Shown: positions 4,643 through 27,775, counted from the stretch's first letter. The stretch: DNA of 55,133 nucleotides from Rhizaria sp. SCN 62-66 (GCA_001724265.1 MEDY01000372.1:1-55133); one strand, 5' to 3'. Translations and numbers: made by a program. Notes: generated by a model not told the origin, from the letters alone.

Positions 4643-7600
4643 ATGCCCTCGCCGCCGCACCGCCCCCTGTGGTGCGCTGCTCCGACTCTGGCCCCCGCCG
4701 TTTGTGCTGCCTCTGCCTCAGCTGCAACTGCAGTCGCTGCCTCTGCTGCTCCGGCGCCAGCCCTTGTGTATGGTCCTGCTTTGCCGCCCCGCGTGGTTTC
4801 CCGAGCGACAACAGCTTTAGGCCCGCAGCAGCAGCACTCGAGCTCGAACTCAACCTCGGCGACTCCCGCGCCCACGCTTGCTGTCGTCACCGCTGCTGCT
4901 GCTGCTGCTGCTGCTACTCGCAGCTCTGTGTGCATGACCTCGCAGCGTCTTTTGCGGCGTTCCGTCTCCTCTTTGCTTGCCCGCACCCTCGCGTTTGCGC
5001 TCGCACTCGCACTCGCCCTGGTGCTAGCGTCCCCTATTGCAGCGGCCGCAGCTGATGATGCTGCTACGACTGCTAGTGGAGGTGCTGCTGGTGCTGCTGC
5101 TGGCGCGAAGCCAAGACCGCCGCCGATGAACCTAGCGCCGCGCCTGGTGCCGCTTACTTACCGTGTTCATCACGAGCTGCGGCTTCCCTTCGATCACCAG
5201 CATCAGCAGCACAGCGCTAGCACTGCCACTGGCACCGACGCGTACCCCGACCCCGACACCGATGTGACAGATGACGCGGTCACTGCTGCACAATTGCAGT
5301 CGGAGTCGCAGCCCGGCGGACGGCGCGCCTGGGCCGGCTACCGCGCCCCCGCGCAGTGGCTGCACGGGCTCGCTCAGGCGCTCGGCCCCGCTCGGCAACA
5401 GAAGCAGCAAGACCGACAGCGAGCTAGCAGCGACCACAGTGGGAGAGCTGAGGCGGCCGTGGGCCTGTGCTGGCTGCCAGCGCCTCGCGCCGCCGCCGTC
5501 ACGCTGACTGACTTCACGCCCATCGTCGTCCCGTACACCTACAGCAGCGGGAGCACTGATACTGAGACTGAGAGTGCCGGTGCGAATGTCGCTACGAGCG
5601 ACAGCTGTGTGAGTGTCAAGACGGTGCTCTCCGTCGCCACAGCTCTCGCAAACAACAGCACGGCGTCCCCGGATTTAAGCACCCGTCTAAGTACCCTCGA
5701 GTCCCATCTAAGTGCCCTGCCCCCGCCGCACCGCCGCTGGCTCCTGTCGCGTGCCCCCGCTCTCGCAGCCCTTGCGCGCGACATTATTAACAGCAACAAC
5801 AACAACAGAATCAAACCAGGCAGTGCGCCTGCGAGCGCCCTCGCTTTCGGAGACCCCGTGCGCGCGACTCAACTCGCACTGCGCCGGCTGCTGCCGCGCA
5901 CTCTAGCCTTCGCAGTGGTGCCAGAGACCGTCACCGCGCTCTCGCCGAAGCAACTCGGCGCGGACAGTGACAGCGAGGGCGACGAGAGCGGCGACGATGA
6001 CGACGAAGAGGAGGACGATGACGATGACTACGACGACTTCAGTGCCAACGGCGTCAGTCCCCCGCCCGCCCCCACAACCCCCTCGCCGCCCCAGCACCAG
6101 CAGCAGCAGTCGTCGGCGGCCCTGGGTGGCGGCGGCTACGGCGCGGGCCTGCCCAGCGAGCGCGACGCTTCGGTGGCCGGCGACCACGGCGCGGCGCTGC
6201 TCTGGGCGCGCAACGCCACGGGCCGCGGTGTCACCGTCGCCGTGCTCGACACGGGCGCGCCGCTCGCGCACCCCCACCTGGCCGCCCTGCGCGCGCGCGT
6301 CGACTTCACCGGCGAGGCGGCGCCCGGCGACGCGCTGGGCCACGGCACCTTCGTCGCGGCCGCGGTGGCGGGCGGCGGCCCCTCGCCGTGCCCGGGTATG
6401 GCTCCCGGTGCTCGCCTGCTCTCGCTGCGCGTCTTCTCGCGGCGACGCGTTTCGCACACGGGCTGGTTCCTTGATGCGCTGGCGTACGCGCTGCAGGCGG
6501 GCGCGGACGTGGTGAATCTCTCGGTCGGCGGGCCTGACCACCGCGACGCGCCCTTCGTGGCCCGCGTGCGCGAGGCCTCGGCCGCGGGTGCGCTCATCGT
6601 CTCCGCCGTCGGCAACGACGGGCCCGTCTGGGGCTCGCTGTCTAGCCCCGCAGACCAGGAGGACGTGCTCGCCGTCGGCGCGGCCACGCTCGCTGGGGGC
6701 GTGGCGCCTTTCTCCTCGCGCGGCGCCGTCGCCTGGTCGCTGCCCAAGGGGCCCGGGCGGGTCAAGCCGGACCTGCTGGCGCTGGGCAAGAACCTCCGCT
6801 CCTCTGCGCCCCTTGACAACAACAACAACAATGCTCACAGTGCCAACGGCAACAGCAACGCGGCGACTGCGAGCTGCCGCGCGCTGTCGGGCACCTCGGT
6901 GGCCGCGCCCGTCGTCGCCGGCGCCGCCGCGCTGCTGCTGTCCGCGCTGCCGCGCGCCGGCGCCGTGCTGCCCGGGGAGGCCGCGCACGCGCGCGCGCGG
7001 GGCCTGCCCCCGCCGGCCCCGCGGCCGCGGCGCGCGCTGCTGAACCCCGCCGCCCTGAAGCAGTTGCTGCTAGCGACCGCGCGGCCGCTCGCGGGAGCCA
7101 GCCTCTTCGAGCAAGGCGCGGGGCTGCTCGACGCGCCCGCCGCGCTCGACGCGCTCGCGCGCTACCGCCGGCACGCCTCGCTGTTTCCTCCGCTCGTCGA
7201 CGCGCGGCCCGAGGCGTGCCCGCGCATGGCGCCCTTCTGCGAGGCCCCCCTGGCCTTCTCGCAGCCGCCGCTGAGCGTCAACTTCACGGTCCTCTCGGCG
7301 CTGGCCCCGCGCTCGCGCATCGTGGCCGTGCGCTGGGAGGTGCTCGACGTCGCGCAAATCGAGACCGCTGACGCTACGGACGCCGCTGATGCTACGGGTG
7401 CAAGCACGAATGCAGACGCAGATGCGAGCGCTGACGCTGACGGCAGCAATCGCAAAGATATCAATGCCGATGACGATGCGGACGGCGATGCGGACGGTTT
7501 GTCGTCCCCGTACCTGCCCTCTCTCGAGGCGCGCCGTGCAACGCTGGCCGCGCTGGCCGCCGCCGAGCGCGCCGGCGACGCGGCCCGCGCGCGCCGCCTG

Positions 7601-9665
7601 CGCCGCGCCGCCGCGCCGTGGCTGCCGCTGGTGAGCGCGCGCACTGGTGAGACCTACTACGAGCACCGCGTGCCCGCGGCGCCCCCGCGGCGGCTGCGCG
7701 ACGTGCTCACGGTCACCTTCGCTCATTCGCAGTCGCTGTGGCCGTGGTCGGGCCACCTGGCGCTCGCGCTCGCCGTCACGCACCCGCTGACCGTGCGCAC
7801 CCAGGTCCACGCGCGCCTCACCGTCACCGTCGAGGCCGACGCCGACAGCGGCGATGGCGCGGAAGGCGCAGACGCCGAGGGCGGCGAGGGCGGTGCTCCA
7901 GCCGGCGTCGTGCGGAGCGACGCTGTGGCGCGGCTGGTGCTGGTGCTAGCGCCTACTCCGCCCCGGGCGCGGCGCGTGGCCTGGGACCAGTTCCACTCGC
8001 TGCGCTATCCGCACGGCTACGTCCCGCGCGACAGCCTCGAGGCGCGCGCTGACGCGCTCGACTGGCTGGGCGACTCGCTGGCGTCCAACTTCCGGCCCCT
8101 CGCGCTGGCGCTGCGCGCGCGCGGACTTGCGCTGGAGCCCGTGAGCCGCGACTGGACGTCACTCGACGCGCGGCTCTACGGCGCGCTGCTCGTGGTCGAC
8201 CCGGAGGAGGAGCTCTTCGCGGCGGAGCGCGCGGCGCTGCTGCGGGCAGTGCGCGACCGCGGGCTCGGGCTGCTGCTCGCGGCCGACTGGTACAATGCCG
8301 CCGTGCTCCGCGCCGTCGCCTTCTTCGACGACAACACGCAGCGCACGTGGGTGCCCGTGACCGGCGGCGGCAACCTGCCCGCGCTCAACGAGCTGCTCGC
8401 CCCGCTGGGTGCCGCGCTCGGCGACTCGGTCTACAAGGGCCGCCTGCGCCTCGCGCCCCCGCTCGCACTTGCGAACTCGACGGCGCCGCTGCCCCCGCTC
8501 AGTCACTATGGCTCCGGCGCCGGGCTGGTGCGCTGGCCCCGCGGCGGCCACCTACTGGCGGCGCCGCTGACCGATATCACGCCTGCGCCCCAGCGTGCGC
8601 GCGCTCAGCCCAGCGCTCAGCCCGGCGCCCACAACAGCAACGCCAATCGCGACGGCGACGCTAACGCTGCGAGCGCTGCGGCGGGCGGCGGCGCCCGGTT
8701 CGAGGAGGCTCTGCTCCGCACAGGGTCCGCCGCAGCCGCAGTGGCCGAGGCCGCGCCCGCGAACGGGGCTACAAGTGCGTCCGCGCACGCAAGCGACCTG
8801 GCCCCGGTCTCCGGGGGCGCGGGCGCGGAGTCCGGCGCGGGGGCCGCCGCCGCCGCCGTGCGCGCGGACGCCGAGGCCTCGCTGCGCCGGGATCTGGCCG
8901 CCGCCGCAGCCGCCGCCGCACTCTCTCACAGCCGGAGCAATGTCGGCGTTGGCACTGGCGCGGGCGCTGGCCCTAGTGGCCCAGCAGTGGGCATCGCCGC
9001 CAGTGTGCGGGCGGGCGCGGCGGCGGTGGCGGCGCGCGTGCTATCGCCCGTCGCCGACACGGTAGCCGCCGCCGTGGGCACTTACCCTCCGCTAGGGCAA
9101 CAACAGCAGTCTAGCGGCGGCAGCATTCACTTCGACATGAGTGGCGACGGGGATCTAAGTACCCCGGATCCAAGTGCCTCCGCGACCACTGACGGCAACG
9201 ACAACCTTGTCGACGCCGCCGATGACTACAGCGGCAACGCCAATGACGCCGACTACAGCGAAAACGACAGCGACGACGCCCTGTCTTTTGTGACGCAGCC
9301 GCCGCGCCGCTGGGGCCGCCAGCTGCTGCAGGCCAGCCCCTCCGGCCACGGCCACGGCCTCGGCGCCGCCTCCGGCTCTGGCTCGAGCCCGGGGCCCGGT
9401 GCCCCGGTGCTGGTGCCTGTGCTGGGGGTGCTGCAGACGCGGCCGCTGACGCCGCTGTCGGCGCCGCGCGCGGGCTCGGGCGCCGTGGCTGCGGTGTCCG
9501 CGCTGGGCCACACCGCGGGGCGCGTGGCCGTCTACGGCGACTCGCAGTGCCTCGACGGGGCGCACCGCACCGCGCAGCCCTGCTTCGACGCCGTGGCCGC
9601 ACTGCTCGCGTACGTCGCCGCCAGCGACCACAGCGATGCCGGCGACGGCCGCGACGGCAATGCTG

Positions 9666-9729
<64 letters not shown>

Positions 9730-12700
9730 GAAGTGGGGTGCAGTGCCGCGGCCGCCGGAGGCCATCTTCGGTCTTCCGGAGCGGAGCCGTCTGCGCAGCC
9801 CGATGGGACACCCGCCTCGCTCTGCGACTGCGGCTGAGCACAAAGAGTACAGTGAGTTCGACTCTGTTGTGTTTGATCCCACCCTGTACACCGCTGTACC
9901 CGACAAGGACGGACTCGTATGGCCTCTCAAGCTACAGCCACAGTCTCAGCAGGCGCAGGCGCAACAGTCTCAGCAGTCTCCGCAGAGCGCTGGGCTGGGC
10001 AGGCTGCACCTGGGCCGCGGCGTCTGGTGGGAGGACGACGACGCTGACAATAAGAACAACGACAGCAATCTCGGCGGCGACGCCGATACGAAGCCCACCA
10101 AGTCCGCCAAGGCCAAGGGCTGGGTGCCGCTGCCGGTGCGCGTGCCCGCCTCGGCCGCCGCCCTCGCGCTTCACTCGCGCGTCGTCGCCCCGCTGCCCCT
10201 CCGCGTCGGACACAGCGGCGACGCCGGTGAGACTGCAGAGACGGCGGAGACGGGTGGTGACCGCGAGCATGACCTGAGCGACCCGGAGACAGCGCTCAGG
10301 GCCCTGGTGGCCGCCGCGCGCGCCGCCGCGCTCGCCGAGACCGCCTCTGACCTGCAGGCTTCAGACGCAGACGCAAACGCTGACTGGGAGTGGGACTGGG
10401 ACTGGGCTGCGGCCGACGCCGGCCAGGCGCGCTGCCCCGGGGACGTCGCCGCGCTGCCGCCGCGCCCGCGCGCGCTGCCGCCCTCGCGCCCGCTCTCAGA
10501 GGCCGCGGCCGCCGCTCTGTGGCTGTCCGACGCTCATGCAAACGCCGATTCTGCGAGTGGCGACGGCGGCGCGGCGACGGAGCCCAGCCAGGACGCCGCC
10601 CCGCGCCCGCCTTCCGTCCTGGAGCGCACACGCACTGCCCTCGCGGCCTCCGCCGCCGCCGCTGCTGCTGCTCATAGCGCCAGTGCCGCCGCCAGCGCCG
10701 GTGTCGGTGCTGGTGTCAGTGCTGAGGCTGCGGCGCAGGCCGCGCTGGCCGCCGCTGCGCTGAGCGCGCCGCAGCCCGCCTGCCCGCCCCCGCGGCGGCC
10801 GCGGCGCCCGCTGCCGCCCACTGCCGCGACGGCGGTCGCGGCGGCCGCAGAGGCGGCGGAGGCTGTCGCTGCTGCGGGCATTGCGGCCGCCGCCGTGGGG
10901 GCCTAGCTCGAGGCGGTCGAGAGGCTCTATAGGGCGAACTATAAGGCGAGCGCCGACGTAAATGCTCGCAAAAACACCCGCACTAACACTAACGGAAACA
11001 GCGAAAGCGCGGATGAGGATACTGTGCCTGGCGCCAGGAAGCTCCTCTCCATCGAGAGTGAATCTCTCTAGCTCGAGCAAGAGCGAGAGCTTGAGTCTGA
11101 AATAGCGCTGCTGTCACCGCTCGATTCGTACCGGTAGACAAACCGCCCCGTCTCGAGTCACACTGACGCGCACAATCGGAGTCCCAGGCGCAGTCAGAGT
11201 CTGGGTGTCAGCGGTTGCAGCCGCGGTCATGGAGACAGGGACAGCGACGGCATACACCGAGACCGAGACAAGCACTACGACGGAGACGGTGGCAGAGACG
11301 GTGACGCGAGCAGGGGCAGTGGCAGCGCTACAGCAGAAGCAGCGGCAGCGCTCGAGAGCGCGGATTGTCCGGACAGCGCTGCCGGCGGCGCGGTGGCGGC
11401 GACGCGGCTGGGCTCTGCGTCGCCCCCGCCCCCCGCCCATAGTGAACACCCCCGCCGGGCAGTGACCACAGTGAGGCCGTTTGCCTCCATAAAGCGACGC
11501 AAGAACAAGAGTCAGACTAAGAAGACTCAGCAGCAGCGCGCTCTTGCTTCACGTGATCCTCACGCCGACACGCGTGCCGCGATGTCGCAGCCCCAGCCCC
11601 AGCCGCAGTGGCCGCTGCCGTGGGCCCCGCGCGCCTGGCTGGCCCGCCCCGCGCCTCGCCCCCCCACGCGCGCGCGCACGCGCTCTAGCGCGCATGCCAA
11701 CGCCCGCGCCACTGCGACTGCCACGGCTAGCGCCGCTGCCGGCCACGGCCACGGCCACGGCTGCGGCGAGGCCGCGCGCTGGCTGCCCCAGCCCCCCGCG
11801 TGCCCCACAAGCTCTGGCACGAGCTCCGGCTCTGGCTCCGGATCCAGCGCTGCGAGCGCGGGCGCGGGCGTGGGCGCCGCGGCGGGGCGCGCGCTGCTGG
11901 CGGCCATCTCGCCCTGGCAGTGGCCGCTGCTGGTGGCGCAGGGCATTCGCGGCACCGTGCGCGGCGTCTCAAGCCTCGCGCGCGCAATCGGGGGCGTCTA
12001 CTCGCGCGCGCTGGCGGGGCTTCGCAACAGGCTCGTTGCCGCCGCGCTCATGCTGCCCTCCTCAGGCGCTGCCGCGCGAGACACAGGGGCCGGCGACGAC
12101 TCCGCGGCGGCCCAGCAGCAGCAGCAACAGCGTCATGAAGGCGACGGGGGCGATGGGGGCTATCGCGACGCTGACGGCGACGACGACCTTTACCGCAGCG
12201 GCGGCGGCGGCGGCGCCGGGGACAGAGACGTCGACAGAGACTGGGACTTGGGCTGGCACAGCGAGGCCGCCGCCGCCGCCGCGGCCGCCGCGGAGGCCGC
12301 CGCCCATTTGGCCGCCGAGGCCGCCGCGGCCGATGCCGAGGCTGAGGCCGCCGCCGAGGCAGCGTTCACGCGCCTCTCGCGGCTCGCCCTGGGGCCCGGC
12401 GCCGGCGCCAGCGGCGGCGCCCGGCGCGGGCGTGGCGGCGGCGGCAGCAAGCAACAGCAGCAGCAGCAGCAGAGCCTCAGCCGCAGTCTCGGCTACATGG
12501 TCGATGACGGCGACGACGACGGCGGATACGGCGGCAGCGACGGCGACGGCGACTGGGGCTGGGGACTCGTGCCCGTGCCCGTGCCCGTGCCCGCGGCCGC
12601 TGTGCGCTGCGGCCACAGCAACGCCAGCGTTGTCGGTGACTCGGACTCTGGCTTTGGCTCTGGCTCTGGCGCAGGATACTACCGCTGGCGCTCAGCCTCC

Positions 12701-15700
12701 GAGATTGCAGCATCATCATCATCATCATCATCATCATCGCTCGGTGATGATAACAGAAACCTCGACCGCTCGGCCAAACCCGACAACAACAGCAACAACA
12801 CGGAGACCGACGACGACGACGATGAGGACGAGGACGAGGAGCCCATAGACCCGGAAGTCGTGCTGTGGCTGCTGCGGCGCCTCGTCGCCAACACGCTGCC
12901 CGACCCCCACGCCCAGGCCGCGGCGACCGCGGCGGCATCGGCGGCAGCAGCGGCGAGCCCTGGGTCTGGCACGGGCAAAGCAGCGACGGCCACTGCCCCT
13001 GCGGCTGCGGCAGCAAGCGACCGCGCCGCGAGCGACCTGGCGCAGCGCCTGGTTGAGACCCTCAAGCCCGGCTCCGCCAAGCACGCGGCCGCGGCCGCAG
13101 CCGTGGCGGCGGCAGCGGCCGCAGCAACTGCGGCGCAACCGAGAGCGACCACGGCAGCGGAAGCGGCGGCGGCAGCGCCCGCGAGCGAGGGCCGCCGCCT
13201 GCGCCTGGCGCGCGCGCTGGCGCAGCCGCTGCTGCTGCTGCTGCTGGGGCTGCTGCTTCTGCTCACCGTCGTTGTCGGCACGCTCATCGCGGTCGGACTC
13301 TTCCGCCTGCTGCGCCGCTGCGGGCGCCGCTACGACCCCTACGGCGCCTCGGTCGGCGGCGGCGACGACTGGGGCCTGGCTGGCTCCGGCTCCGACTCAG
13401 GTTCGGGCTCGGAGTCCGAGTACGCGGCCGCGCCGGGGCCCTGTGGCGGCTTCGGCGGCTACTCTCCGCCCTCCATCAGCGGCAGCAGCGGCGGCGGCCT
13501 GAATGGCGACAGCGACGGCGGCGGCGACGGCGACGCGCGGGACGGCGGCGTGCGGCGCCGGCGCCGCCGCAGGCACAACAACAGCAGCAGCAGCCGCCAC
13601 AGCGACGGCGGAAGCGGCGACGGCAGCGGTGGGCGCGCGCGCAGGCACAGGGACAGGGACAGGGAGGGCCGAAGCTCAGGTGAAAGCGACCGGAGCAAGA
13701 GCAGCAGGAGCAGGGGCGAGCGCCATGGCGACGAAACCGACAGCAAGGACAAGGACCGGCGCCGGCGCAGGCGCAGGGACAAAGCCGATGCTGCCGCGGC
13801 CACGGCCGCCGGCGCTGTCGATGCTGTCGTTGCTGTCACTGGCACCGCGCCGGTTGTTGTCGTCGACCTGACCGACGTCGAGCCTCTGCTGGCCGCTGAG
13901 ACGGCTGTCCGCGCGCGCGCTGGCTCGGCCAGAGCGCGCGCTGCGACTGCTGCTGCAGGGAACGCGGCCGCTGCGACTGTTGCACCTGCTCTTGCACCTG
14001 TCTCTGTCGTCGCCCCTGACGCGACTGCTGCGCTCAAAAGCCCCTTCCGCGCGGTGCGCAGCGCGCGCGCGCCCGCCGTCATCAATGCGAGTGCAAGTGT
14101 CGGTGCTAATGATGCTGCAGCTGACGCTGCAACAGCGAGAGCCCCGAAAACGTCCCCGCAAAAGCCCTCGCAGCTGAAATCGCAAGCGCACTCGCACTAG
14201 CACGTCCACGGCTGTGCCGAGTGCGAGCTGGCCGCTGCCGCCGCTGCGGCAACTGCGACGGCTGCGGCCGTTGCCAGCCGTGCTGCCGCCCCATCGCCGC
14301 CGCAGTCGCCGCCGCAGCAGCAGGCACAGGTGCGCGTGCTGTCAGACTCGGTGGCCGCCGCGCTGGCCGCCGCCGACAGCGCTGCCGCTGCCGCTGCGAC
14401 TGCCTTCGGCGCCAAAGTCCCTGCGGCTGCAACTGCGGCTGCGAATGTGAGTGCTGATGATGGCAAGCCGCGCTCGCTGTCGCCGTCGTCGCCCCTGCTT
14501 GCGCGCGCCGCCGCGGACGACAGCGAGGCCGTCGAGCGCGAGAACGCCGCCGCCGCCTGCGTCGTCAACGATAGCTCTGGCGACGACGACGACGACGATG
14601 AAGACGACGGCGACGGCGCGTACTCGCGCTTTGTGCGGGCGCAGTCCCGCGCGCGCAAGCGGCAGTCCCCGAGCCCCGCGGTCTCGGTCGCGGCACTTTC
14701 GCGGTCGCCGTCGCGGTCGCTCTCGCGCGCGCGGCAGCCGCCGCCGTCGCTGTCGTCGTCGCTGTCAGCATCGTCACTGACGTCGTTGTTGTCGTCGTCG
14801 GCCTCATCGTCGGCCTCATCGAAGCTGCAGGTACAGTTGCCATTGCATTCACATTCGCAGGCGCAGGCGCAAGCGTTGTTGCCGCCCGCGCCCCCGCGGC
14901 CGCTGCCGTCGACGCCGACCTCTGGCGGTCCCGGCGCCAGCGCGGTGGGCACGGTGGCGACCGCGGCGCGGCGCAGCGCGGCGGCGGCGGCGCGCGCGCG
15001 GGCGCAGCTGCGCCTGGCGACGACGCCGCTGTCGGCGCTGCTGACGCCAGCGCAGTGGCGCCGGCTGCGGCGGCGCGCGCCCGGCTTCGAGCCCAGTGAC
15101 AGCGACCGCAGCAGCGACAGCGACAGCAACGGCGGCGGCCGCGGCCGCGACCGCGAGCCGCTGTCTGACTCGGACTCCGCCTCAGACTCTGGGTCGGGGT
15201 CAGACTCGCAGTTCGAGTCCGGGTCGGAGACTGAGTCTGCGAGCGGGCTCTCGCGCGCCGGCTCCGGCTCCGGCCCTGAAGACGCCGCTGCTCCCAGTGC
15301 TGGTGCGGCGAAGGACGGAACTGGTGCTGCGACCGCCGCCCATGCGACTGCCGCCCATGGGACTTCTGGAGCCCCTGCTGCAACGGAGACTGTGGCCGCC
15401 GCAGCCGACGCCAACAACTCACCCAACGCTCCTGATCAGGCAGACTGCGACAACAACGACGACGACGACGATGACGACGACGATGACTCCTACGAGGACG
15501 ACGAAGACGAGGACGAGGAAGAGGACGAAGAAGGGCTCGAGTGGGCGGGCAGCATGCGTGTGCGCGCCGACATCGCCGCCTTCCTCACGCGTGGCCAGCG
15601 CGCCTGGTCCGCCTCGGCCTCCGCCTCCGCCTCGCAGCAGCAGTCGCACTCACTCTCGTACTCCCACTCCCATTCGCCGTCGCCTTCGCAGTTCGCCGCG

Positions 15701-16672
15701 GCCTCGGCGCCGACGCCGATGCTGGCGGCGCTGTCCGCGCCGGGCGGGCCGGGCGCGCCCGCGCTGGAGCTCTGCAAGCTCGAGGCCATTGCAGAGGCTG
15801 ATGCGGACGACGGTGTCGACGACGGCGGAGACGCAGCAGATGTCAACTCCACTGCGGTTATGGCTTCGAGCGCTGCCGTCGCCGACGCTGTTTCTGCAGC
15901 GTCTTCTCTTGCTGATGCGACCGCTACGGCCACTACCGACGATAACGCTGCGGCTCCGGAGGCGGTGCTCAGTGCAGAAGAGCGTGAAGCGATGGAGCGC
16001 TACTACCGTGCGCGTGAGCGCTGGTGGTACGTCTCTGACTCAGACGGCGACGGCGACAGCAGCAACACGGACAGTGCCATGAGCAGCGACGCCGACGACG
16101 GCCCACCCGGGCTGCGCCGGCGCTTGCTGTCGTCGTCGTCATCCTCGCTTGTCGTGGCCGCCAACCGACGCGCTGAAGAGTCGTCAGCGTCGTCATCGGC
16201 GCGATTGCCATCATCATTGTCGTCGTCATCTCATGCTGTAGACTCTGTCACTGCGGACCAGGCGGCAGGCGAGACTCTCTCTCACTCGCTTCGCCCGCGG
16301 CGGCTCCAGCAGCAGCGCAAAGACGACGACGGCGACGCAACCGACTACTCCTACTTTGCATCGGGCGCTGAAGACGGCTTGGCGCCTGAGGGCGTGCAGG
16401 ACACTGACAGCGCAGAAAGTTCTGACGAGGATGGCTCGCTAGCGCAACGCGGCAAACAGGCAGCAAATCGTGCCGCTGCAGCAGCTGCAGCCGCGTGGAA
16501 CGACGTCCGCGAGTGGGGCGCGCGCATCGCGGCGCCCAAATAGCGCACTGGTGCGAAGCGGACGCGTGCGACCACAGCAACAGACACAGAGGAAGACGCT
16601 GCATCGGAGAACGATGGCGAAGGCAACGATGACGAAGATGACATGCCGTTCCTCTGCGGAACGCTCAACTAA
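4643..16672 (+). CDS. MBTPS1: Site-1 protease (SKI-1/S1P-like subtilisin S8), about 4009 aa, read through five in-frame TAG codons
   Basis: Catalytic motifs VAVLDTG (D at 6248), GHGTFVA (H at 6341) and SGTSVAAP (S at 6896). S1P-type motifs VSHTGWFLDA, GGPD, WDQFHSLRYP.GY.PRD and FFDDNT..W.P.TGG.N. ORFs 4643, 11393 and 14330 share a frame and are separated only by TAG at 10904, 11069, 11135, 14198 and 16541. TM helix at about 13229-13303. First TAA at 16670-16672. Confidence 0.82.
9668..9727 (+). repeat. (GCT)20 microsatellite encoding polyAla within the S1P gene
   Basis: Read directly from the sequence. Confidence 0.95.
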
Positions 16673-17548
16673 ACATGACAGGATCGCTTTATGAACCATT
16701 TGGATACTTATATCATTCTCCTTGAGACTTTACTTAGAAAATAGCTTGATACATTTACAATCACTTGAACCTACATTTACCCACGAACCCACCACCATGA
16801 TTCAATCATAACTGGTCCGCGGCTGCATCCAGATCATTAATTTGGACATATTTCGGACTATAAACAATGTTACTGCATGTATAAATGCATACATCCAATG
16901 TAATCTTGTGCAAAGTTATATTTACATTAATTGTAAGGTTCATATTGCTCCGACATTGCTTGTTGGAGAGGATTACCTTTAAAACCCCTTTAAAACCCAC
17001 AGTCAGCAAGTCTAGAATCATGAAGATATCACTATTTAGCTACAAAACAAATATATTTTTATTAAATAGATTTTATATAACTTTTTAATAATTTATATGC
17101 ATGAGATTAAAAGATATAAAACAAATGTTATGTTAAAAAGTTAATAAACGTAAAAATGTTTAAATAATGTTAAATAGAATAAATATAACTGTTTAATTAT
17201 TATTTGTTTAATCAACAAAAAAGACTCTGTGTTTGCAATAAATTTCTTTGTATTCCCAAGCAACTCTAATACTTGAATCAAGTAACAAAAACTTACATTA
17301 ACAACCATATTAAGTTTTTAAAATTAATTAAATAGTTTCAGTTCTATTTATTGAAATATATAGCTATAACTAACTGTAACTTGTTAATTATATTCAAATT
17401 AAATTTTAAAAAAACATAATATGAATAAATATATTTTAATTTATCTTTCTTTACTTTTCAAACTTATATTGGAGAAAGAAACAAGGCGACTTGTGAGTGA
17501 AACCGAGGGTTGAGAGAAAATTATTAAAGGAGACAGAACCTGGAGTAA

Positions 17549-17612
17549 AACCTGAAGTATTGTATTCAAATCACTATTTAAACCTGAAGTATTGTATTCA
17601 AATCACTATTTA
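17549..17612. repeat. Perfect 32-bp tandem duplication AACCTGAAGTATTGTATTCAAATCACTATTTA x2
   Basis: Copies at 17549-17580 and 17581-17612. Confidence 0.95.
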
Positions 17613-17640
17613 ACCTTTGATATTTTGTTTCGATGAGCGT

Positions 17641-18804
17641 TCACACTTCATCTTCCTCGTCATCCGAGACACCGGTGAAGTCGACCTTGGAGATAAGTGA
17701 CTCGCGCTCCGACGTGAGCTTCTCCATCAGTTTGGTCGCCTCCTCGAGCGTCCGCTGCAGCCCCGCGCTGTCCATACCATTCGTTGCAGCCTCTCTATCC
17801 TCATCTGTGCCTGGTGAGCGCGCCACTACGGCCACCGCAGCCGCGGGCGCGGCCGGGTCGAGCTACGGTAGCTGCGTCACCGTGACACTGTCAGCGTACT
17901 GCACCGCTGCGATAAGCTCTGCCTCCTCCTCGTTCGCCGCCTCTGCCCGGAGCGTCGAGTTGCGCTGCAGCTGTCCTTGCGTCTGCTGCGTCTTAGCCGC
18001 CGCGCCGCCCGCCTTGCTGCGCACGCGCCGCGCGTTGGCGCTGCGGTCCAGCGCCTCGGCCCCCGCGTCGAGCGCGAGCGCGTACGCGCGCAGGGCCTCC
18101 GTCTGCGCCGCCAGCGCCGCGAAACCGGAGGAGATGGAGCCGGGCAGCTCCATCGCCAGCGCCAGCGCGTCCCCGCCACCGCCGGAGCCGCTCATTGCAG
18201 AGCTGGAGCTGGAGCTGGAGCTGGAAGACTGCCAGGAGGGCGGAAGGCGGTCAGCGTACCGGCTCATATACGAAGGCATTGCGGGTGCAGCAGTTGCGGC
18301 TGAGACAGAGGTCGCGAGCGACGACGCGCGAGCTGCCGCGGCGGCTGACGGCCCCACAACAGAGACTGAAGTTGAAGCAAGAGCAGGAACAGCTGGAGCG
18401 GCAGAGGAGGTAACGGAAGTGGAACATGCAACGTGAGAGGCGTAACTGCCAACAGGAGGGCCATAGGGCGCGGCTGCGGCAGACACAGGAGCCGGAGCCG
18501 GGGCGGATGCATACGAGGATGTGTATGACTGCGCGGGGGCCGCGTTATAGGCCGTGTTGTAGGGATTAGGGCCCGCAGCGGCGGCGGAAACGGCAGCGCT
18601 GTTAAGGGGCACACGGCCTGTTGAGACTCGCGAGACCGGCCGGGGGGCCGTGAGATCGGGCTGGGGAGCAACACAAGCGGATATTATGTGAGAAGAGGCA
18701 TTAACACAACAGGTTGTAGAACGATAGAGACACTGAGAAAGAGTGTGACGTACCAAGGGCTGGAGAGGCTCGAGGCCGTCGGAGAGCTGAGAGAGGTAGC
18801 TCAT
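17641..18804 (-). CDS. Hypothetical low-complexity protein with a short C-terminal coiled coil; exons about 18804-18754 and 18660-17641, one in-frame TAG at 17863-17865
   Basis: In-frame 93-nt intron GTACGT...CCCCAG. ORFs 17863..18891 and 17641..17835 share a frame and are separated only by TAG (QLP*LDPAAP). Ends TGA. The start is uncertain because the ATG follows a possible acceptor. Confidence 0.65.
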
Positions 18805-19217
18805 CTGTGCTGTACATTTAAACGGGAGCGGGAAGATGATCGTTAAATGATGAGTTGCTAAGATATACGTTATAAACAGGTGTCTTATCAATGATACTAT
18901 TACTGTTTCTGTTATATATCGCGGTAAAGCAGTCTACAGCGCTGTTATCAATACTCGCCCCGTCTGCTCACCCAGTTTGCTTCTCGAAAGATCTGTTTGT
19001 GGTGACCAAATCCAGATTGTCCAGATTGTCATATTTTGTTGTATGATCGTCGTACAAAAATGTTTTAGAGTTGTTAAGTTTGAAATACTCTCACTGTTTT
19101 TAATACTTTTTAATTTTATCTCCAGCCTTCTTTCTTCAGTCATAGCAGGCTGTCAAATTCTTTGCTTCGTCACCCCTCTCTCGCAGCACCCTCGCCGCAG
19201 TTCGAGCCCCGCTAGCG

Positions 19218-21292
19218 ATGTCGCGCTATTACTGCTACACGTGCGAGCGGCGCGTGAGCACGCACCCGTCCCCCTCGGACCCGTCTTCGCGTCTCTGCGA
19301 CGAGTGCGACGACCTGTACGTCGAGGAGATCAACGACGCCAATTCCTCGCTCGGCCTCTCCACTGGCGGCTCAGTCTCTCTTTCGACCGCCGGCGCTGCC
19401 GGGGCCGGCGCTGGCGCGGGCGCGGGTGGTGACACCGCTTCCATGGCCGACAGCGACGCCACCAGTCTTTCCCCGCATCCCGCAGGCTTTCCCCCGCGCC
19501 ACAACAACAACAACAACAACAACAACAATCGCTCCTACAACCACAACCACGGCAACAGCGCCAGCGCCAGCGGCTTCGCAGCGCGCGGCAACCCGGGCGG
19601 CGCGAACGATCGTGCGGGCTTCCCGCCCGCCGCTGCCGCCGCGGTTGGCGACGAGGACGACGACGACTTCTTCTTCAACGCTGAGGGCCCCTCCAGCTCC
19701 CCGGGTCTCCTACCCGCTTCCGCCTCCGCCGCCGCCGCCTCTGCTGCTGCTGCTGCTGCTGGTGCTGCTGGCGGTGTACGTGCTGGCGCTGCGCAGGCGC
19801 ACACAGCGCGCTCGGCGCAGAACACGCCCACGCACTCGAGAACGCACTCGAGCTCCAACACGCCCGCCAGCGCTTCGAGCGCCGGCCCAGGCCCCAGCCC
19901 CAGCACCGGCTTCGTCCCCGGCTTTGGCGCAGGCGCAGGCGCACGCGCACGCGCAGGCGCAGGCGCTGGCTCCGGCTCTGCGTTTGCGGGCGGCGGCCGC
20001 GCACACGGCAACGCGCGCGCGCGCACGATGGGCGGCGACGCCTTCGGCGCCTTCTCCAGCCTCTTCGGCTCCCTGCTCGCCGTGGCCACCGGCGCTGGCG
20101 GTGCTGGCGGCAACAACAACAACAACAGCGCTAGCGGCAGTGGCAGCAACAACAGCGGCGGCAGCAGCGGCGTCAGCGGGTCGATGGCGCCGCCGACCGC
20201 CGTGCGAGCGGCCTCGGCCTCCGGCAGCGTCGGCAGCGGCGGCGGCGGCCGCGGCGGGCTCGGCGGGCTGGACAACGGCAACGGCGGCAACAGCATCACT
20301 ATCGAGGAGGCCAGCGAGAGCGAGAGCGAAAGCAGCAACAGCAGCAGCAGCAACAACAACAACAACAACAACAACAATGCAAAAGCTGCCGTCGCGAGCA
20401 GCGTCACCAGCGTTGCCGCTCCCGGCCTACCTGTCGCCGAGCCCGTCTCAGAGCCTGATGGTTTGCCCGAGGTCGAAGCGGAGGCCGAGTCCCCATCCGC
20501 CGCCCCCGCCGCTGCTGCTCCCGCCGCTGCTGCCGTTGCTGCGACGGGGGATGCGCGGCCGCACGAGTCTGCGCGCCCCCACGAGAGCCCGACGCTGAGC
20601 CCGGCGCGGCCGCGGCGCAACGGGCCCCGGCTCTTCACGCCCCAGAACGGCCAGTCGCAGCTACAATCGCACTCGGGACAGCCGCAGTCGGCGCAGACGC
20701 AGAACAACAACAGCAGTGGCAGCGACCCAGCTCTTGATTTCGGACTGCAAATCGCGCAGACAGTGTTGGGCTCGCTTGCAGGCATCTTCGGCGGCCTGAA
20801 TAATAACAACAACAATAATAACAATAATGGCCAGCAACAACAGCAGCAGCAACAGGCCTTTGGCAGCTTTGGTCTGGATGGTACCCGCCACGGCAATGGC
20901 AACGGCGGTGTCTTCAACTTTAACGTGGACCTGACGCCAGGCAACAGCAATAACATCAACAACAACAACAGTAGCAGTGGCCATGGCAGTAGCAGCAGCA
21001 GCGCCAATGACAGTGCGGCTGCGGCTGCGAACGCAGCTGCCGAAGTCAGCAGCAACGACGAGCCCGCGGCCAGCAGCAACAACGACGCGAGCGCTGCCGC
21101 CGCTGCTGCCCCTGCTGCTCCTACTGCTGCTGCTGCTGCCGCTGTTGATGCTCAGCCGCAGCCTCAGCCTGAGTCAGGCGGCCTGTCCCGCAGCCTGCCT
21201 GCATAGTTTCACCAGAGCGTTCTGGAGGCGCAGCAGAGCGCGCAGGCGCTGTCACAGGCACTATCGAGGCAGCAGCAGCCGCAACAGATGCC

Positions 21293-21366
<74 letters not shown>

Positions 21367-22628
21367 TGCCGCCGGCCCTGCAGGGTTTCCAGGGCCTGAT
21401 GGGGCTGCTGCAGAGCCTCCCGGGCATCGGCGAGGCTATTCAGGGCCAACTGGGCCAGCCGGGCCAAGGGCAGCAGGGGCAGCAACAGGTGTTCCCAGGA
21501 GGCTGGCCCTTCGGCAACCTCGGCGGCCTCGGTGGCGGCTTTGGCGGCGGCTTCGGCGGCTTCGGCGGCAGCGGCGCCGTCGCGGGCATGGGCGCGGGCG
21601 CGATTGCGGCGCTGCCGCGGACCGTGTACACGGAGAGCATGATCGCGGAGGCCGAGGCGGCCGAGGCGGAAGCCGAGGCTGAGGCTAATGGCAACGGTAA
21701 CAGTGGCAGTGAGGCGACTACGGCGGATGCTGCTGACGCTGCCGCCAGCAGCGATGGGGTCAATGCATCTGACTCCCCTGCTGCTGCTGCTGCTGCTGCC
21801 GACTCTCTTGCTGCTGACTCTGCCGCCGCCCCTGTCGCCCCTGCTGCCGCTGCGAGCGCGAGTGCGAGCGCGAGTGTTGAAGACGACTCCGACAACGACG
21901 AAGACGGAAACAACGACAACAACAACAACAGCAGCAGTAGCAGCAGCAGCACTGAGACAGAGGCAACCACTGCCATTACCCCTTCCACTGCCACTGCGAC
22001 TGAACCTCCCACTGCGACTGAACCGATTACTCCAGGTGCCAGTGCTGCTGTCCCGAGCGCGTTCGCGCCCAGCTCTCGGCGCAGCTGCGGCGTGTGTTTG
22101 GAGCCCTACCGCGCGGGCGACGCGGCCGTGGATCTGCCGTGCGGCCACCGCTTCCACGCCACCTGCGCCGCCGAGTGGCTGGCCCGCCGCGCCACCTGCC
22201 CGCTCTGCCGCGCCAACGCCCACGGCAACGGCGACGGTAACGGCAACGCTGTCAGCGGCGGTAGCAGCAACGCGGGCACCAACGCTCATGGGGCGCGGGC
22301 GCCGCCGCCGCGAGTGCAGGTGCAGGTGCAGCAGTTCAACATGCCTCTGCCGCCTCAAAGGCCACACCAACAACAACAACAGCAGCAGCAGCGTCATCAT
22401 CACGTGATCAATATCCCCTTGGGCCCGCACAACAACAACAACAACAACGCCGGCGCCAATGCGAACGGCGGCAGCAACGGCAACGGCAATGGCGGCGGGA
22501 ATGGATTGACGCTGCACACGATGGTCAACGGCGTCCCCGTTGCGATTCCCCTCGGCAACAACAACAGCCTGAGCATGAACATCAACAACAACAACAACAA
22601 CGGCGGCAACGGCAACAATCCTGCAGCA

Positions 22629-22659
<31 letters not shown>

Positions 22660-24251
22660 AGCGCGGTCCAGGCACGCAGGTCTCGGAGGCGTCGTTGCGC
22701 GAGGTGAGCCTGCAGATCCACTCGCTGCGGCACCAGATGGCGCGGCTCTCGCAGCGCATGGGCCGCTGGGAGCAACAGCAGGAGCGCCTCATCGCCGCGC
22801 TGGAGCGCGCCGCGCCCGCGCTCGGCCTGGGCAACGCTGCGGAGCCGCAGCAGCCGCAGCAGCCTCAGTTTCAGCATCAGCAGCAGCAGCAGTATTCGCA
22901 GTCGCCGTCGCAGCAAGTGCAGCCCGAGCCGTCGTCGTCGCTGTCCCTGCCGGCGCTACCGCCGTCGTCGTCGCCGTCGCTCTGCGCGGCCGTGATCGCG
23001 GCCGCCTTCGACCGCGACAGCAGCAGCAGCAGCGCCAGCGTCCTTGACGCCGCGGGCCGCAGCCGCAGCAGCAGCGGCAGCAACGCGGCCGCGAAGAACA
23101 CTGCTGGTGCTGCTGCTGGTGCGCGTGCTGCTGCTCGCAGCCGGAGCTCCAGCACCAGTCCTGACAACAAGCCAGATGCTGCGCCATCTGCAACGCCGAC
23201 GGCGACGGCGACAGCGACTGCCGCGAAGCCTGTCGCGAAGTCTCCGCCACCCCCTGCCTCTGCTTCAGCCTCTGCAAAGTCGCCGTCGCCGTCGCCGTCG
23301 CCGTCGCCTCAGCCTCAGCCTCAGCCTCAGCCTCAGCCTCAGCCTCAGCCGCTGACACAGCTGCCGCAGCCGCAGCCGACGCATGCGCCGCTGCAGACGC
23401 GGCTGTTCGCGGGCGGACTGCCCTCGATCTGCATCAGCGACCTGGTGGGCGGCCTCAACTCGATCATGCTCGAGCCGCCGCTGCCCGCCAACGCGTCGCC
23501 GCAGCAGCAGCAGCAGCGGGAGCGGTAGCGGCGTCTGGTGGTGCCCGAGGGGCTGGTCGTGCGCCGCGGCGACAACGCCTGGGCGCGGGCCGGTCCGCTG
23601 CGCCGCCTGCCTCACCCCGGCGGCAACAGCAGCGGCGACGCCGTCACTGAGAGTGGCGACGGCGACAGCGGTGGCGGTGGTAGCGGCGCGCAGTCGGGCC
23701 CCCTGGTGCAGCTGTTCGCGCTCGCGACGCCGGCCGAGCGAGAGCGACAGGCGCTCGAGGTCGCGCGGGACCCCGCCCACCCGCTGCGAGAGGCCGTAGC
23801 GCACTTCATGCTGGGCGCCGCGGGCGCCGCGCACTCCCCGCCGCCGCTCTCGCCTGACCTGCTGCTCTTCACCGCGCTGGCGCTGCCCGAGGCGCAGCGG
23901 GCCGAGCTGGGCCTGCCGCCGCGCGCGCTCAGGTTCCCAACGCCCCACGCGCTATCACTGCTGAACCTCAACGCGCCCGCCGGCAGGCGCATCGTCGGCT
24001 TCCGCGTCGCAGAGCCGCGCAGCAGTGGCGGCGGCGGCCTGGCGGGCAGCTGGAGCCGCATCCGCATTCGATCCGTGCCCGCCGGAGCGTTGCCGGTCGC
24101 AGACGGCGGCGGCGGCGGCGGCGGCGGCGCTGCGGCTGCTGCGGTGGACGAAACCGAGGTGGACCTAGGGGCGGACAAGACCGTGGTCGCGATGCGCATG
24201 GTCGGCAGCACGCTGGCCGTGCTCGTGGCCCTGGGCAGGCCGCAGCTGTAA
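19218..24251 (+). CDS. RNF115/RNF126-like RING-H2 E3 ubiquitin ligase, about 1677 aa, with in-frame TAG at 21204 and 23526
   Basis: N-terminal zinc ribbon YYCYTCERRV...CDECDDLYVEEI. RING-H2 CGVCLEPY...LPCGHRFHATCAAEWL...TCPLCR. The three ORFs share a frame and are separated only by TAG. Ends TAA. Confidence 0.82.
21294..21365 (+). repeat. (CAG)24 polyGln tract
   Basis: Read directly from the sequence. Confidence 0.95.
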
Positions 24252-24803
24252 TCGCCATGGTTAACGTGCTGACTTTTAAGTCATCAGTAGCTGTAAGAAG
24301 TCAATTCGCTGACTTAGCGAACCAAACCAAGAACAAATGTAAACATTTAAGGACAGTACAGTACTATGGAAGGTTATTGTTTTTATGTTTTTATTTTTAT
24401 TCAAACGTGGATTGTAGACCGATATCTGGAGATATCTTAGTGTTTTACGCGACTTTATAAGTGTAGTTGATTCAAAGTGTTTTGTGACTTTTATCCGGTG
24501 ACTTTTATCCGTGTATTGCTTCAATTAAGTGAGAATTCAAGTTCATTTTTTATCTCCAATTTCTTAATCTCATTAATGTAGGATTATTCTTTGCTACTTG
24601 CTAACTACATAAGTGTACAGTACTACTGAGTACATGTGATGATGACCATAAACAATCAAGATTTTGTGTTCAAGTCTCCCTAAATTGGACGTACTGCGCC
24701 ACGTTATTGCTCCTTTGTGACAGTGACACGGATGCGTCCAGCTGCTTTTGTCGTCTCTTCGTTGCACTATTCGGCGCATGTTGGTGTGGCAGTGTTGCAG
24801 TGC

Positions 24804-27775
24804 TTAAGCTGCGCACATCAAAAAGTGCACCAAATACAGCACAAAGAGAAAGAGTCCCTCAAAGATACATACAAAGCAAAAAAGGGTTTTAAATGGGAAA
24901 AAGCAAGAAAAATAACCAAAACGCGACAGAATGTGGGGACTCAGGTGAAAAACGGCATCTAGAACCGCGATGAGTGCATTGGGTAGGCTGACACAAAAAA
25001 CACGAACCATGAGAAGCAGGAGTGCAACAAGACGTGACCATGGTGACCATGACGAGGCTTGCTCCTGTTCCAGTTGAAATACTTCTAACTGTGCTTTTAC
25101 AGACATCTTCGAGTTCAATAAGTAAAAATTGCGAGTTTTAAGCTTTTTAATTATGGACTGAAGTGTTACAATATTATGTTGCAACGAATTGTTTCCAACT
25201 TCTGCGATCTGCAGCCTACTCTCCAGCTCAAATGGATGCTGATACCATGAATTGTCAGGCGAGTAACAACTGCGCAGCATTCGAATGTGAGCAGTTGCTT
25301 TGTCAGCTCTTCGCTTCGCAGTATCATACTTTTTCTGATACAAAATCCAAGATTGCAGCGCAAATTTGTACTTACTTTCCCATCCAGTCTTGCACCGACG
25401 CTATGCAGCATCTACACAAGCATTTGCCTTTGCAAGCTTGACAAGCAACTCCTGATTGCGCCCTTGCAGAGCGGCAACCGCAGTCTCAGCAGCTATGAGC
25501 CTATCTATGACGGCGTCCGTCTCAGTCGCTACGGCGTCCGACAACAGCTGGAGCGCGCGCGCTTGCTGCACGACGTCGGGGAACGACACGCCGCACCGCA
25601 CGCGCACCACGGCCGAGGCGTCAGCGAGACTGCTTGTGCTGTTGCTCATCGTGTTCTTCGCCTCATAGTCGAGCAGCGCTTGGCTCAAGGATGGCGATAG
25701 ATTAAGGGCGACCGCGGCTGTAGTGCGCACGTTTTCGGCACCAGTGTCGCTTACTGCGTTCCAATTTGCTTCAATTTTAGGACTTTCTCCAGCCAGCCAA
25801 ATTTCACCCGCAGACTCGTTCTCGTTGTTGCCATGCTTGCTTAAACCATCAACCAGGTGCGTGGTGAAGATTGCATTCACGCGACCGAACGTGTTCGCGA
25901 CGGTTGCGAAAGGAGCCACAACATCATCAATCGCGGAAGTCACAGAATAGTGACTCTTGCCCTGCTTTATCTTCTACTTCTGCTTATTGCTATTGCCTTT
26001 GTTGTCCTCCGAGATGCCAGAAACGCTTGGTGTCAATGTCTTCTTATGATTCTTCCTCTTGCCATCGATGCAGTCCTGATTACTGTTCTGTTGCTTTTGA
26101 CTCAAGCTACTGCTGGCGTTTTGAGAGTCGTGGCCGTTGTCGTCGTCGTCGTCGTCGTCGTCATCGTTGGTGAAGACCAGTCTATCTATAGCACGCGCCC
26201 GAGTGCCACAGGCCTTATAGAGCGAATTGAGCGCTTTCCAAATTGGTTTCGCTGTTGTCTCGCAGATAAGTCCGCACTCACACGGCTCGCGCCAGTCAAC
26301 ACCTTCAACGCCGTTACTATCAGTAATGTTAGCAGCCAGAGGTTGCGCCGCACAGATGCAGCCACGGCGCGCGCGGAAGTGGAAGCGCACGCCGCAGAGC
26401 TCGACAGAGCCCAGCTCTACGGGCAGCGCCCCGCGCATGAGCGCAGAAAGCGGCACGTCAGCCTCGCAAACGGCCTCACGCGGGGCCGCAGCGGTGCTGG
26501 CGTCGTTGATCGCGTCCGTGATGACTTCGTAAGCGGTCGTTTGCTCTGAAGTGAGCTGAGGGGAGACGCGGGCAGGCCAGCCGCGGCTCGCAGCGGCGAG
26601 CGCAGACAGCTCCGTAATGCTGGGGGCGGCGACAGACTCTGTAATCAGAGAGAGATTCTCGCGCGCGGTGGCAAGCTTTTTGTCGTCAGTAATGGATGAC
26701 TGCGTAATGTAGAGCTTGAGCTGCGACAGTACGGTCGCAAGGGGCGCCACAGCTTGTGCGGCAAAAGTCTTGCTTTGATCAAGCAGCACTGTGTGCTTGC
26801 TGCTAACGTCGTCCTGGAGCTGCTTCATCGAATTCCTTTGCATCTACAAGGTTTTCAGCAAAATGCAAAAGTTTGGAGCAGCGCAAATATGCAAAGCCAT
26901 TTTGTGAATTGCAATATGGAATCAGCTAGAGTCGACAAACAGCACGGGGCTAAATAGGCATACATGACCCTGTTGCATTGCATGATTTGTTGTGATCATA
27001 ATTTCATCTATTAGACAAACCTAAATCTCGCATTTGAACTTCAAGAGCTGCGGCTGGAGCTGCTCTGCGAGGGCCTGGAGCTCCGTGCGGATGTCAGTAA
27101 GCATGCGGAAACTGTGATCTTTATGCTCGCCTCGCATAATCAAGCACTGTCCGCATATGGGGGTGTTGCAACTGTCGCACCAGTTGACGATATCGATCGG
27201 CGGAGTATGAAGGTGACAGTACTGCAACACAATATACATGTACAGGTGTACATTGTACATATTGTACACCATATCAACAGGTAATGATGAAAAACAAATG
27301 ACGAGTGTCATGAGAGCTGATGATCAAGTGCGAAAGTACATTTGTACTCGCATCGTATTTACGAATAATAGAGATTGAGCAATTGAAAATACAGGTATAC
27401 ATACAAGCGACATATATATGTCAGCATACAATAGCAGATTCGCGGACAAACGTACGTTAGGGTTGTTTGGGAGCACGCTAGGGGCAGTAGTTGGCGTCTT
27501 TGGCTCATGGAGCGCGAGTTGAGTCTAAATTCAGCATAGAGTAGGGGCAACACAACGTGAATGGTCATTTAATTATGCATCAAAGTGAGAGAAAATGGCG
27601 TTTGATAAAACCAGAGGAGTGTCATTAGTCCATCGCGGCGCGGATTGGCGTGTGACCATGATGACTTCGTAAGACTTACCTTCAAACAACTCACACAGCA
27701 GTCCAAAGCTAGACCTCCGGGGGGAGTAATAAAACTTTTTCTGCAGAGCCTACAGCTTGAAACCCGTGCTGACAT
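24804..27775 (-). CDS. B-box zinc finger plus coiled-coil (TRIM-like) protein; exons 27775-27680, 27524-27456, 27221-27021, 26843-24804; in-frame TAG at 27021, 25974 and 25401
   Basis: B-box CHLH...WCDSCNTPICGQCL...EHKDH. N-terminal CxxC...CxxC. All three introns are phase 0 GT-AG. Downstream ORFs 25974..26843, 25401..25943 and 24804..25343 share one frame and are separated only by TAG. Ends TAA; the 3' end could contain a further intron. Confidence 0.7.

Follow-up and report, generated by a model that had tools for sequence, protein, structure and literature searches.

The window examined here is a 55,133-nt stretch of eukaryotic nuclear DNA from a metagenome assembly (MEDY01000372.1, Rhizaria sp. 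SCN 62-66), taken at its full length. It contains four adjoining genes, which we call A to D, whose reading frames on both strands hold eleven TAG codons and are otherwise intact. We argue that in this protist UAG probably encodes an amino acid and that UAA and UGA are the sole terminators, the translation of UAG being predicted from the sequence. The four genes and their in-frame TAGs are as follows, with positions counted from the first letter of the window.

4643-16672, plus strand: gene A, a site-1 protease (S1P/MBTPS1) homologue of about 4,009 codons, ending in TAA at 16670-16672
10904-10906, plus strand: first in-frame TAG of gene A
11069-11071, plus strand: second in-frame TAG of gene A
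11135-11137, plus strand: third in-frame TAG of gene A
14198-14200, plus strand: fourth in-frame TAG of gene A
16541-16543, plus strand: fifth in-frame TAG of gene A, 43 codons upstream of the TAA
17641-18804, minus strand: gene B, member of no known family (Pfam scan without match), ending in TGA at 17641-17643
17863-17865, minus strand: in-frame TAG of gene B, 73 codons upstream of the TGA
19218-24251, plus strand: gene C, a RING-H2 protein of 1,677 codons, ending in TAA at 24249-24251
21204-21206, plus strand: first in-frame TAG of gene C, between the putative N-terminal zinc ribbon and the RING finger
23526-23528, plus strand: second in-frame TAG of gene C
24804-27775, minus strand: gene D, a B-box protein modelled with three exons, ending in TAA at 24804-24806
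27569-27775, minus strand: possible first exon of gene D in the model of the initial annotation, with its ATG at 27775; an open frame with no Pfam match
27021-27230, minus strand: B-box exon of gene D (Pfam zf-B_box, 2e-07), 5' limit approximate
27021-27023, minus strand: in-frame TAG of gene D, the final codon of the B-box exon
26844-27020, minus strand: intron of gene D, 177 bases, GTTTGT...TTGTAG, GC 0.39, with stops in all frames
24804-26843, minus strand: last exon of gene D, 679 codons
25974-25976, minus strand: in-frame TAG of gene D, last-exon residue 290
25401-25403, minus strand: in-frame TAG of gene D, last-exon residue 481

The initial annotation had described eleven in-frame TAGs in four genes on both strands, in frames free of TAA, TGA and frameshifts. 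All eleven were found at the positions listed above and all are in frame; neither TAA nor TGA occurs in 11,573 counted codons, and no frameshift was found in 6,852 codons. Six other TAGs within TAA/TGA-delimited frames (864, 1125, 18934, 19143, 40103 and 26844) were left out of the count because they lie in an AT-rich leader 5' of the first ATG or form the 3' end of an intron. The inferred start of gene B is the first ATG past its AT-rich leader.

In gene A the coding frame holds five TAGs and no TAA or TGA, compared with 6 TAA, 28 TGA and 12 TAG in one of the other two sense frames and 10, 80 and 12, respectively, in the other. TGA is the commonest off-frame stop yet is absent from the coding frame, implying that TGA is excluded there and TAG tolerated. 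Using the lower of the two off-frame rates, we calculated the probability that a frame would contain no TAA or TGA after its first TAG. This was 8e-8 for the 1,921 codons of gene A, 2e-4 for the 1,014 codons of gene C and 6e-5 for the 389 codons of gene D; for the 73 codons past the TAG of gene B the value was a non-significant 0.39. On either side of the gene A TAGs, and in the same frame, a codon-usage score trained on genes lacking TAG was positive. The earlier claim that coding-like sequence continues past the TAGs is borne out by codon usage in gene A and by the openness of the frames in genes A, C and D. The TAGs span 12-99% of coding-sequence length, and most lie past the midpoint of their gene.

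The ends of 15 genes in this 55-kb window could be fixed; seven are TAA, eight are TGA and none is TAG. The initial annotation had counted 17 genes ending in TAA or TGA, of which the absence of TAG ends stands and the number does not, since only 15 ends are fixable. It had also named conserved genes ending in TAG as something that would speak against a sense codon, and the fixed ends include no such gene. Composition separates the two kinds of site. Coding sequence has a GC content of about 70-75% and the AT-rich spacers between genes 12-50%, and mean GC changed by -0.21 past the 15 terminal stops versus -0.02 past the ten exonic TAGs (Mann-Whitney P = 0.005). A further in-frame stop follows within 46 codons of the terminal stop in 13 of the 15 genes; a TAA or TGA within 50 codons of a TAG was seen once in the ten exonic TAGs, at the end of gene A. 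Taken alone, this TAG at 16541 could also be a genuine stop, and is a possible exception to the rule that TAG ends no gene. GC around the TAG sites ranges from 0.45 to 0.86. Ordinary introns around the TAGs were considered and rejected, because the introns of this genome are AT-rich and contain stops in every frame, whereas the surroundings of the TAGs are coding-like.

Homologues of gene D were found at 31-49% identity, all in environmental assemblies. With the 177-base intron removed, TAG 27021 occupies a single column in an alignment with six B-box homologues, with no gap in the 40 columns on either side, and the homologues carry K, K, E, K, A and E in that column. This gap-free alignment implies that the TAG fills a real codon position of the gene D family. 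TAG 25974, at residue 290, sits between the N-terminal domain and two central motifs, FATVANTFGRVN and VRCxVSFPDVVQQARALQL; homologues are continuous there, and six of the nine that were aligned carry the N-terminal domain and both motifs on one chain. The family, which is uncharacterised, combines a B-box with a conserved domain some 250 residues long and these two motifs. Scanning genome contigs for the gene D family gave no match.

Gene A fits the MBTPS1 family, as it has the subtilase domain (Peptidase_S8, 1.4e-41) together with the MBTPS1-specific third and fourth domains (MBTPS1_3rd, 8e-13; MBTPS1_4th, 1.9e-70), with homologues at 39-48% identity. Similarity to S1P stops near residue 1662. 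Hydrophobic segments are confined to residues ~124-147 and 2877-2895; the latter segment lies past three TAGs, and there is no membrane anchor before the first TAG. S1P has a type I topology, with which the C-terminal helix of gene A beyond three TAGs agrees. At about four times the usual S1P length, gene A continues after residue ~1662 with some 2,300 low-complexity residues rich in Ala, Ser, Asp and Gly, interrupted by the one membrane helix at 2877, beyond which about 1,100 residues are predicted to form a cytosolic tail. In gene C the RING finger (zf-RING_2, 3.8e-14; frame residues 994-1036) lies downstream of TAG 21204, and a Zn_ribbon_19 match at residues 40-76 scored 24.9 bits, under the cut-off of 30.8. 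The C-terminal part of gene C gave no lead in Protein Atlas, where all scores were <0.9.

Twelve runs from seven studies match the window, and they are labelled as bioreactor, wastewater, activated-sludge and microbial-fuel-cell metagenomes; the DNA runs X1-X3 contain 95-99% of its sampled words. Contigs of four runs (X3, X4, X5 and X8) were placed on positions 8300-28200, and the results below refer to the pieces listed for these runs. Contigs of X3, X4 and X8, which come from three studies other than that of the possible source, span nine of the TAGs and match the window at each of these nine; none of the listed contigs spans TAGs 16541 and 23526. The DNA run X3 spans seven, with no differences in its pieces: 10904, 11069 and 11135 (record 2, 10426-11490), 14198 (record 4, 13724-14951), 21204 (record 6, 20537-21281), 25401 (record 7) and 27021 (record 8). 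Run X4, from a diverged strain, spans 17863 (record 12; this site is also spanned by X8 record 27, both with no differences), 25401 and 25974 (record 15) and 27021 (record 16). The X4 gene D pieces differ from the window by 15 and 14 substitutions, none of them at a TAG, and the insertions and deletions of this strain (16780, 16784, 17466, 24353, 27239 and 27841) are confined to spacers or an intron.

Standard-code gene calls cut gene D at its TAGs into P0242 (residues 6-289), P0243 (301-480) and P0244 (522-679). The first two are each present on six ENA contig records, with identical twins on one JGI record, and P0244 is present on three records. Because standard-code gene callers split genes at each TAG, as with gene D in its three pieces, the proteins of this organism are fragmented in public catalogues. 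As the window comes from a metagenome assembly, assembly or sequencing errors or a chimeric contig are conceivable. Such an artefact is extremely unlikely, given identical TAG-bounded gene calls on seven contig records and the nine TAGs that recur in contigs of three other studies. On the question of assembly error raised in the initial annotation, these contigs thus favour genuine TAGs, also in the diverged strain.

Run X5 is recorded as RNA-Seq of a polyA metatranscriptomic library. One of its contigs (record 17, 340 bases), placed at 10652-10991 with no differences and no gaps, retains TAG 10904 between flanks of 252 and 85 bases. Provided that this contig derives from RNA, TAG 10904 is therefore neither edited nor spliced out. 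Of the eleven TAGs, this is the one covered by the listed contigs of the RNA library, and a contig cannot by itself prove its RNA origin. Seven more X5 pieces lie downstream of TAGs, three in gene A and four in gene C:

11863-12185, plus strand: X5 piece in gene A
14681-14947, plus strand: X5 piece in gene A
15947-16188, plus strand: X5 piece in gene A
22019-22345, plus strand: X5 piece in gene C
22721-22977, plus strand: X5 piece in gene C
22973-23241, plus strand: X5 piece in gene C
23754-24051, plus strand: X5 piece in gene C

X5 depth is near nil over spacers, gene D and most of gene B, which is evidence for neither silence nor RNA purity. Among the variants listed for genes A and C beyond a TAG, four of five are synonymous, weak evidence from a small sample of mixed runs.

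The same contigs bear on the possibility that the TAGs are removed before they reach the ribosome, either by U to C RNA editing or as part of unconventional short in-frame introns. RNA-derived contigs check one TAG only, and the sequence TAGCTCGA is common to three TAG sites. As a candidate signal, this sequence was rejected: it has four matches in the window, including an out-of-frame one within the PPR gene, and it is not over-represented, since four matches were reached by 11 of 100 shuffles. Also against removal, the one RNA-library contig has its TAG unchanged and ungapped, and the listed rows of the four runs contain no alternative letters at any TAG and no plausible splice joint there, the listed joints being low-complexity artefacts with sides of 20-22 bases. 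The known introns, AT-rich and with GT..AG ends, are unlike the surroundings of the TAGs, and GT is absent within the 45 bases upstream of TAG 14198. We consider editing or splicing of the TAGs very unlikely.

Intact frames, the absence of TAG ends, recurrence across assemblies, the intact TAG in a polyA-library contig and the gene D homologues together make a sense UAG the best reading, and in this respect the UAG-only reassignment put forward in the initial annotation is supported. A number of observations weigh against it. TAG is rare, with 11 in 11,573 counted codons or about 1 per 1,000, and is absent from 12 other genes, the conserved P5C dehydrogenase (ALDH; 548 aligned codons) among them; no TAG occurs in 4,721 codons counted in six other genes, nor in ~1,100 codons of five more. 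All eleven TAGs fall within genes A to D (binomial P ~0.001), and three of them lie inside 77 codons (P = 0.011). Every TAG is at a non-conserved position. GC content at third codon positions (GC3) is lower around TAGs (0.70) than elsewhere (0.79; P = 0.009), the TAG rate per 1,000 codons being 1.4-2.7 where GC3 is <0.8 and 0.3 above that. Of ten TAGs, seven are followed by C (P = 0.004) and none by G, when G starts 44% of codons; with the spliced site 27021 included, the figure for C is 7 of 11 (P = 0.008). In the last two exons of gene D, 10 of the 12 coding differences between X4 and the window are non-synonymous. ARAGORN and Rfam found no tRNA genes in the window, nor does the window encode eRF1, and the contig from the RNA library covers a single TAG, with the limits on its origin already given. 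The three genes of L001, the closest relative found (described below), are free of in-frame TAGs, an absence that is uninformative because about one TAG would be expected at the rate seen here.

Clustering is one of the features that would be expected if the code were standard and the TAGs were real premature stops, with genes A to D truncated or decaying and their open frames recent relics: the chance of all eleven TAGs falling in these four adjoining genes is small, as noted above, and in GC3-rich genes 64-67% of single-base nonsense changes give TAG. Such decay would also fit the mostly non-synonymous strain differences in gene D and the position of the S1P catalytic domain, with all other homologous parts of gene A, upstream of the first TAG. 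That same mutational spectrum gives a probability of ~0.009 that all eleven stops would be TAG, and the 6,852 codons without a frameshift, TAA or TGA are not what decay would leave, in that X4 does have insertions and deletions in spacers and an intron. Gene D keeps its motifs at their exact spacing past the TAGs, TAGs precede both the gene C RING finger and the S1P membrane anchor, and the TAGs are kept in the diverged strain. Nor is there a signature of repeat-induced point mutation (RIP); this process, or a deamination process like it, was rejected as the source of the TAGs, since the dinucleotide indices of genes A to D equal those of the other genes. Premature stops are thus an improbable explanation. 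Because the strain differences in gene D are mostly non-synonymous, the gene appears weakly constrained, and it may be either fast-evolving or weakly constrained; relative to X4 its coding part has no insertions or deletions and a substitution density below that of the flanking spacer.

The bias towards C is the pattern expected of leaky stops and not of a fully reassigned codon. C after a stop is the weakest termination context. In a standard code with leaky UAG stops, near-cognate tRNAs would read the TAGs in such a weak context and yield both full-length and truncated products. The next-base counts fit this account, as do the rarity of the TAGs and their location at unconstrained, low-GC3 sites, mostly in the second half of genes. 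In the available part of one source, the +4 base is the key context position for readthrough and viral and yeast readthrough contexts start with UAG-C (bioRxiv 10.1101/2023.06.19.543857). Full-length products, however, would require five successive readthroughs in gene A and three in gene D, so that at an efficiency of a few percent there would be almost no full-length protein. In addition, the downstream frames are free of TAA, TGA and frameshifts and keep their family motifs, and TAG terminates none of the 15 genes, which would be unexpected of a working stop. The pattern of programmed readthrough, a single leaky stop near the end of the coding sequence with a defined signal, was not seen, as genes carry up to five TAGs with no common hexamer. 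We therefore regard leaky stops under the standard code as unlikely.

If UAG is a sense codon, it would be read by a predicted tRNA with the anticodon CUA that does not read UAA, and eRF1 would probably recognise UAG poorly. The restriction of UAG to rare, weakly constrained, low-GC3 sites, mostly before C, suggests that its decoding may still compete with termination or that the reassignment may be recent, and rarity and C bias together leave room for a partial or context-dependent reassignment. Possible, though doubtful, is a part-way state in which a UAG-reading tRNA is present and TAG has been purged from gene ends while the release factor still competes. Sense UAGs would then survive only before C, never before G, in weakly selected, low-GC3 disordered segments. 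If true, this would offer a natural snapshot of the 'ambiguous intermediate' stage, in a non-ciliate lineage new to code change.

As the TAG sites are all variable, no amino acid can be assigned to UAG. Homologue columns and local repeats weakly favour Lys, Glu or Gln, all polar or charged. At residue 481 gene D aligns weakly to K/K/K/R, and local repeats conflict, with (x-GAG)n and (CGG GAG)n suggesting Glu and CAG AAG / TAG AAG suggesting Gln. A naive Bayes analysis of neighbouring residues gave no signal for the amino acid at TAG.

A protein search for close relatives found none above 37-38% identity. A metagenome scan found one syntenic relative, L001 (4,664 bases), which corresponds to window positions 43281-49675, keeps the three-gene order and has an ALDH identity of 76%. 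Neither the ALDH intron nor intron 1 of the small membrane-protein gene is present in L001, implying that introns were gained or lost between close relatives. The other 79 metagenome loci are distant, and in-frame stops in them are introns or belong to other organisms. In three ALDH homologues at 35-47% identity (L052, L077 and L078), a shared TAG lies in frame within the ALDH coding region, opposite a Glu in the query; these loci may derive from another organism whose code is non-standard. The best named ALDH matches, at 53-55% identity, are from a choanoflagellate, a jakobid and chytrids, and the S1P matches are scattered; these are too distant for placement.

Besides genes A to D, the window contains the following genes.

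plus strand: EF-hand protein
minus strand: Derlin
minus strand: NIPA-like transporter, several exons
plus strand: Rhodanese/UPF0176 protein
minus strand: PPR protein
plus strand: CLAMP-domain flagellar protein
plus strand: P5C dehydrogenase (ALDH4), two exons
one on the plus and one on the minus strand: two small genes
plus strand: THOC3-like WD40 protein
minus strand: one further gene

Introns are few in the window. The two that were measured, those of ALDH and gene D, have GT..AG ends, GC of 0.37-0.39 and stops in every frame. The ALDH intron starts at 44388 and its end was read at 44655 (about 268 bases), the GC of 0.37 being measured on 44388-44652. In the AT-richer half (42532-43280 and 45340-50215), several short AT-rich introns split genes, namely the small membrane protein at 46.1-47.3 kb and a minus-strand gene at 47.8-49.7 kb. 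The very GC-rich genes A and C and those at 32-42 kb are apparently intronless. In the spacer between genes A and B (17050-17500), GC falls to 12-23% next to genes of about 70% GC; this spacer has three small insertions and six substitutions in strain X4.

A further independent case of UAG-only reassignment would be a new data point on how the coupling of UAA and UAG is broken. Its host is an abundant uncultured wastewater eukaryote that is represented in the DNA runs of several studies and in one run of polyA RNA, and the low codon frequency and context bias could make an intermediate stage of reassignment directly testable. Searches in an open-access library turned up no link between such a code and a wastewater or activated-sludge protist. 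According to the available portions of two sources, a split in meaning between UAG and UAA is, among nuclear codes, confined to a handful of lineages, three of them outside ciliates (PMC5304391, PMC11687900).

Two of these were described together, and the following holds for the part of that report available to us (PMC5304391). The rhizarian exLh has 384 in-frame UAG codons in 71 genes, read as Leu, and Iotanema spirale, where UAG means Gln, has 204 of them in 126 genes; transcripts of the two end in UAA or UGA without exception (71 of 71 and 119 of 119, respectively). A bias for C after UAG, as seen here, is not described there. The protist studied here resembles both in having only UAG in frame and UAA or UGA at the ends of all 15 genes with fixed ends, with a tRNA(CUA) as the predicted mechanism, and it resembles Iotanema in density, with 11 UAGs in ~16 genes. 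Unlike in both, where UAG stands at hyperconserved Leu or Gln positions that give its meaning, the sites here are unconserved, and unlike in exLh, with about five UAGs per gene, there are none in the 548 conserved ALDH codons. Mitochondrial-type genes such as P5C dehydrogenase and PPR would not be expected of an anaerobic fornicate such as Iotanema.

The precedents named in the initial annotation (exLh, Iotanema and some ciliates) stand, and the list lacked Scotinosphaera, Protocruzia tuzeti and the phyllopharyngean ciliates. In the available part of PMC11687900, UAG has changed alone in these three, to Ser in Scotinosphaera; as here, UAA is still a stop, and some of the cases there likewise come from metagenome-assembled genomes. 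Coding sequence here has about 72% GC, spacers are AT-rich and the ordinary GT-AG introns are 177-268 bases long, a combination unlike a ciliate macronucleus.

Context-dependent use of one codon as stop and sense, as in Condylostoma, Parduczia, karyorelict ciliates, Blastocrithidia and Amoebophrya, is conceivable here too, and the C bias hints at competition with the release factor. In those systems, so far as the accessible accounts describe them, the same codon also ends genes, whereas here TAG ends none of 15 and one of the three stops is affected. There is also a likeness to readthrough in tobacco mosaic virus (UAG-CAATTA) and yeast BSC4, where UAG is followed by C at few sites and in dispensable parts of proteins, as the partial text of bioRxiv 10.1101/2023.06.19.543857 presents them. 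Unlike in those two cases as so presented, the genes studied here have up to five sites each, well before the 3' end and upstream of essential domains, and share no hexanucleotide signal. The kind of code is thus already known, and this protist would be a further member, probably an independent one.

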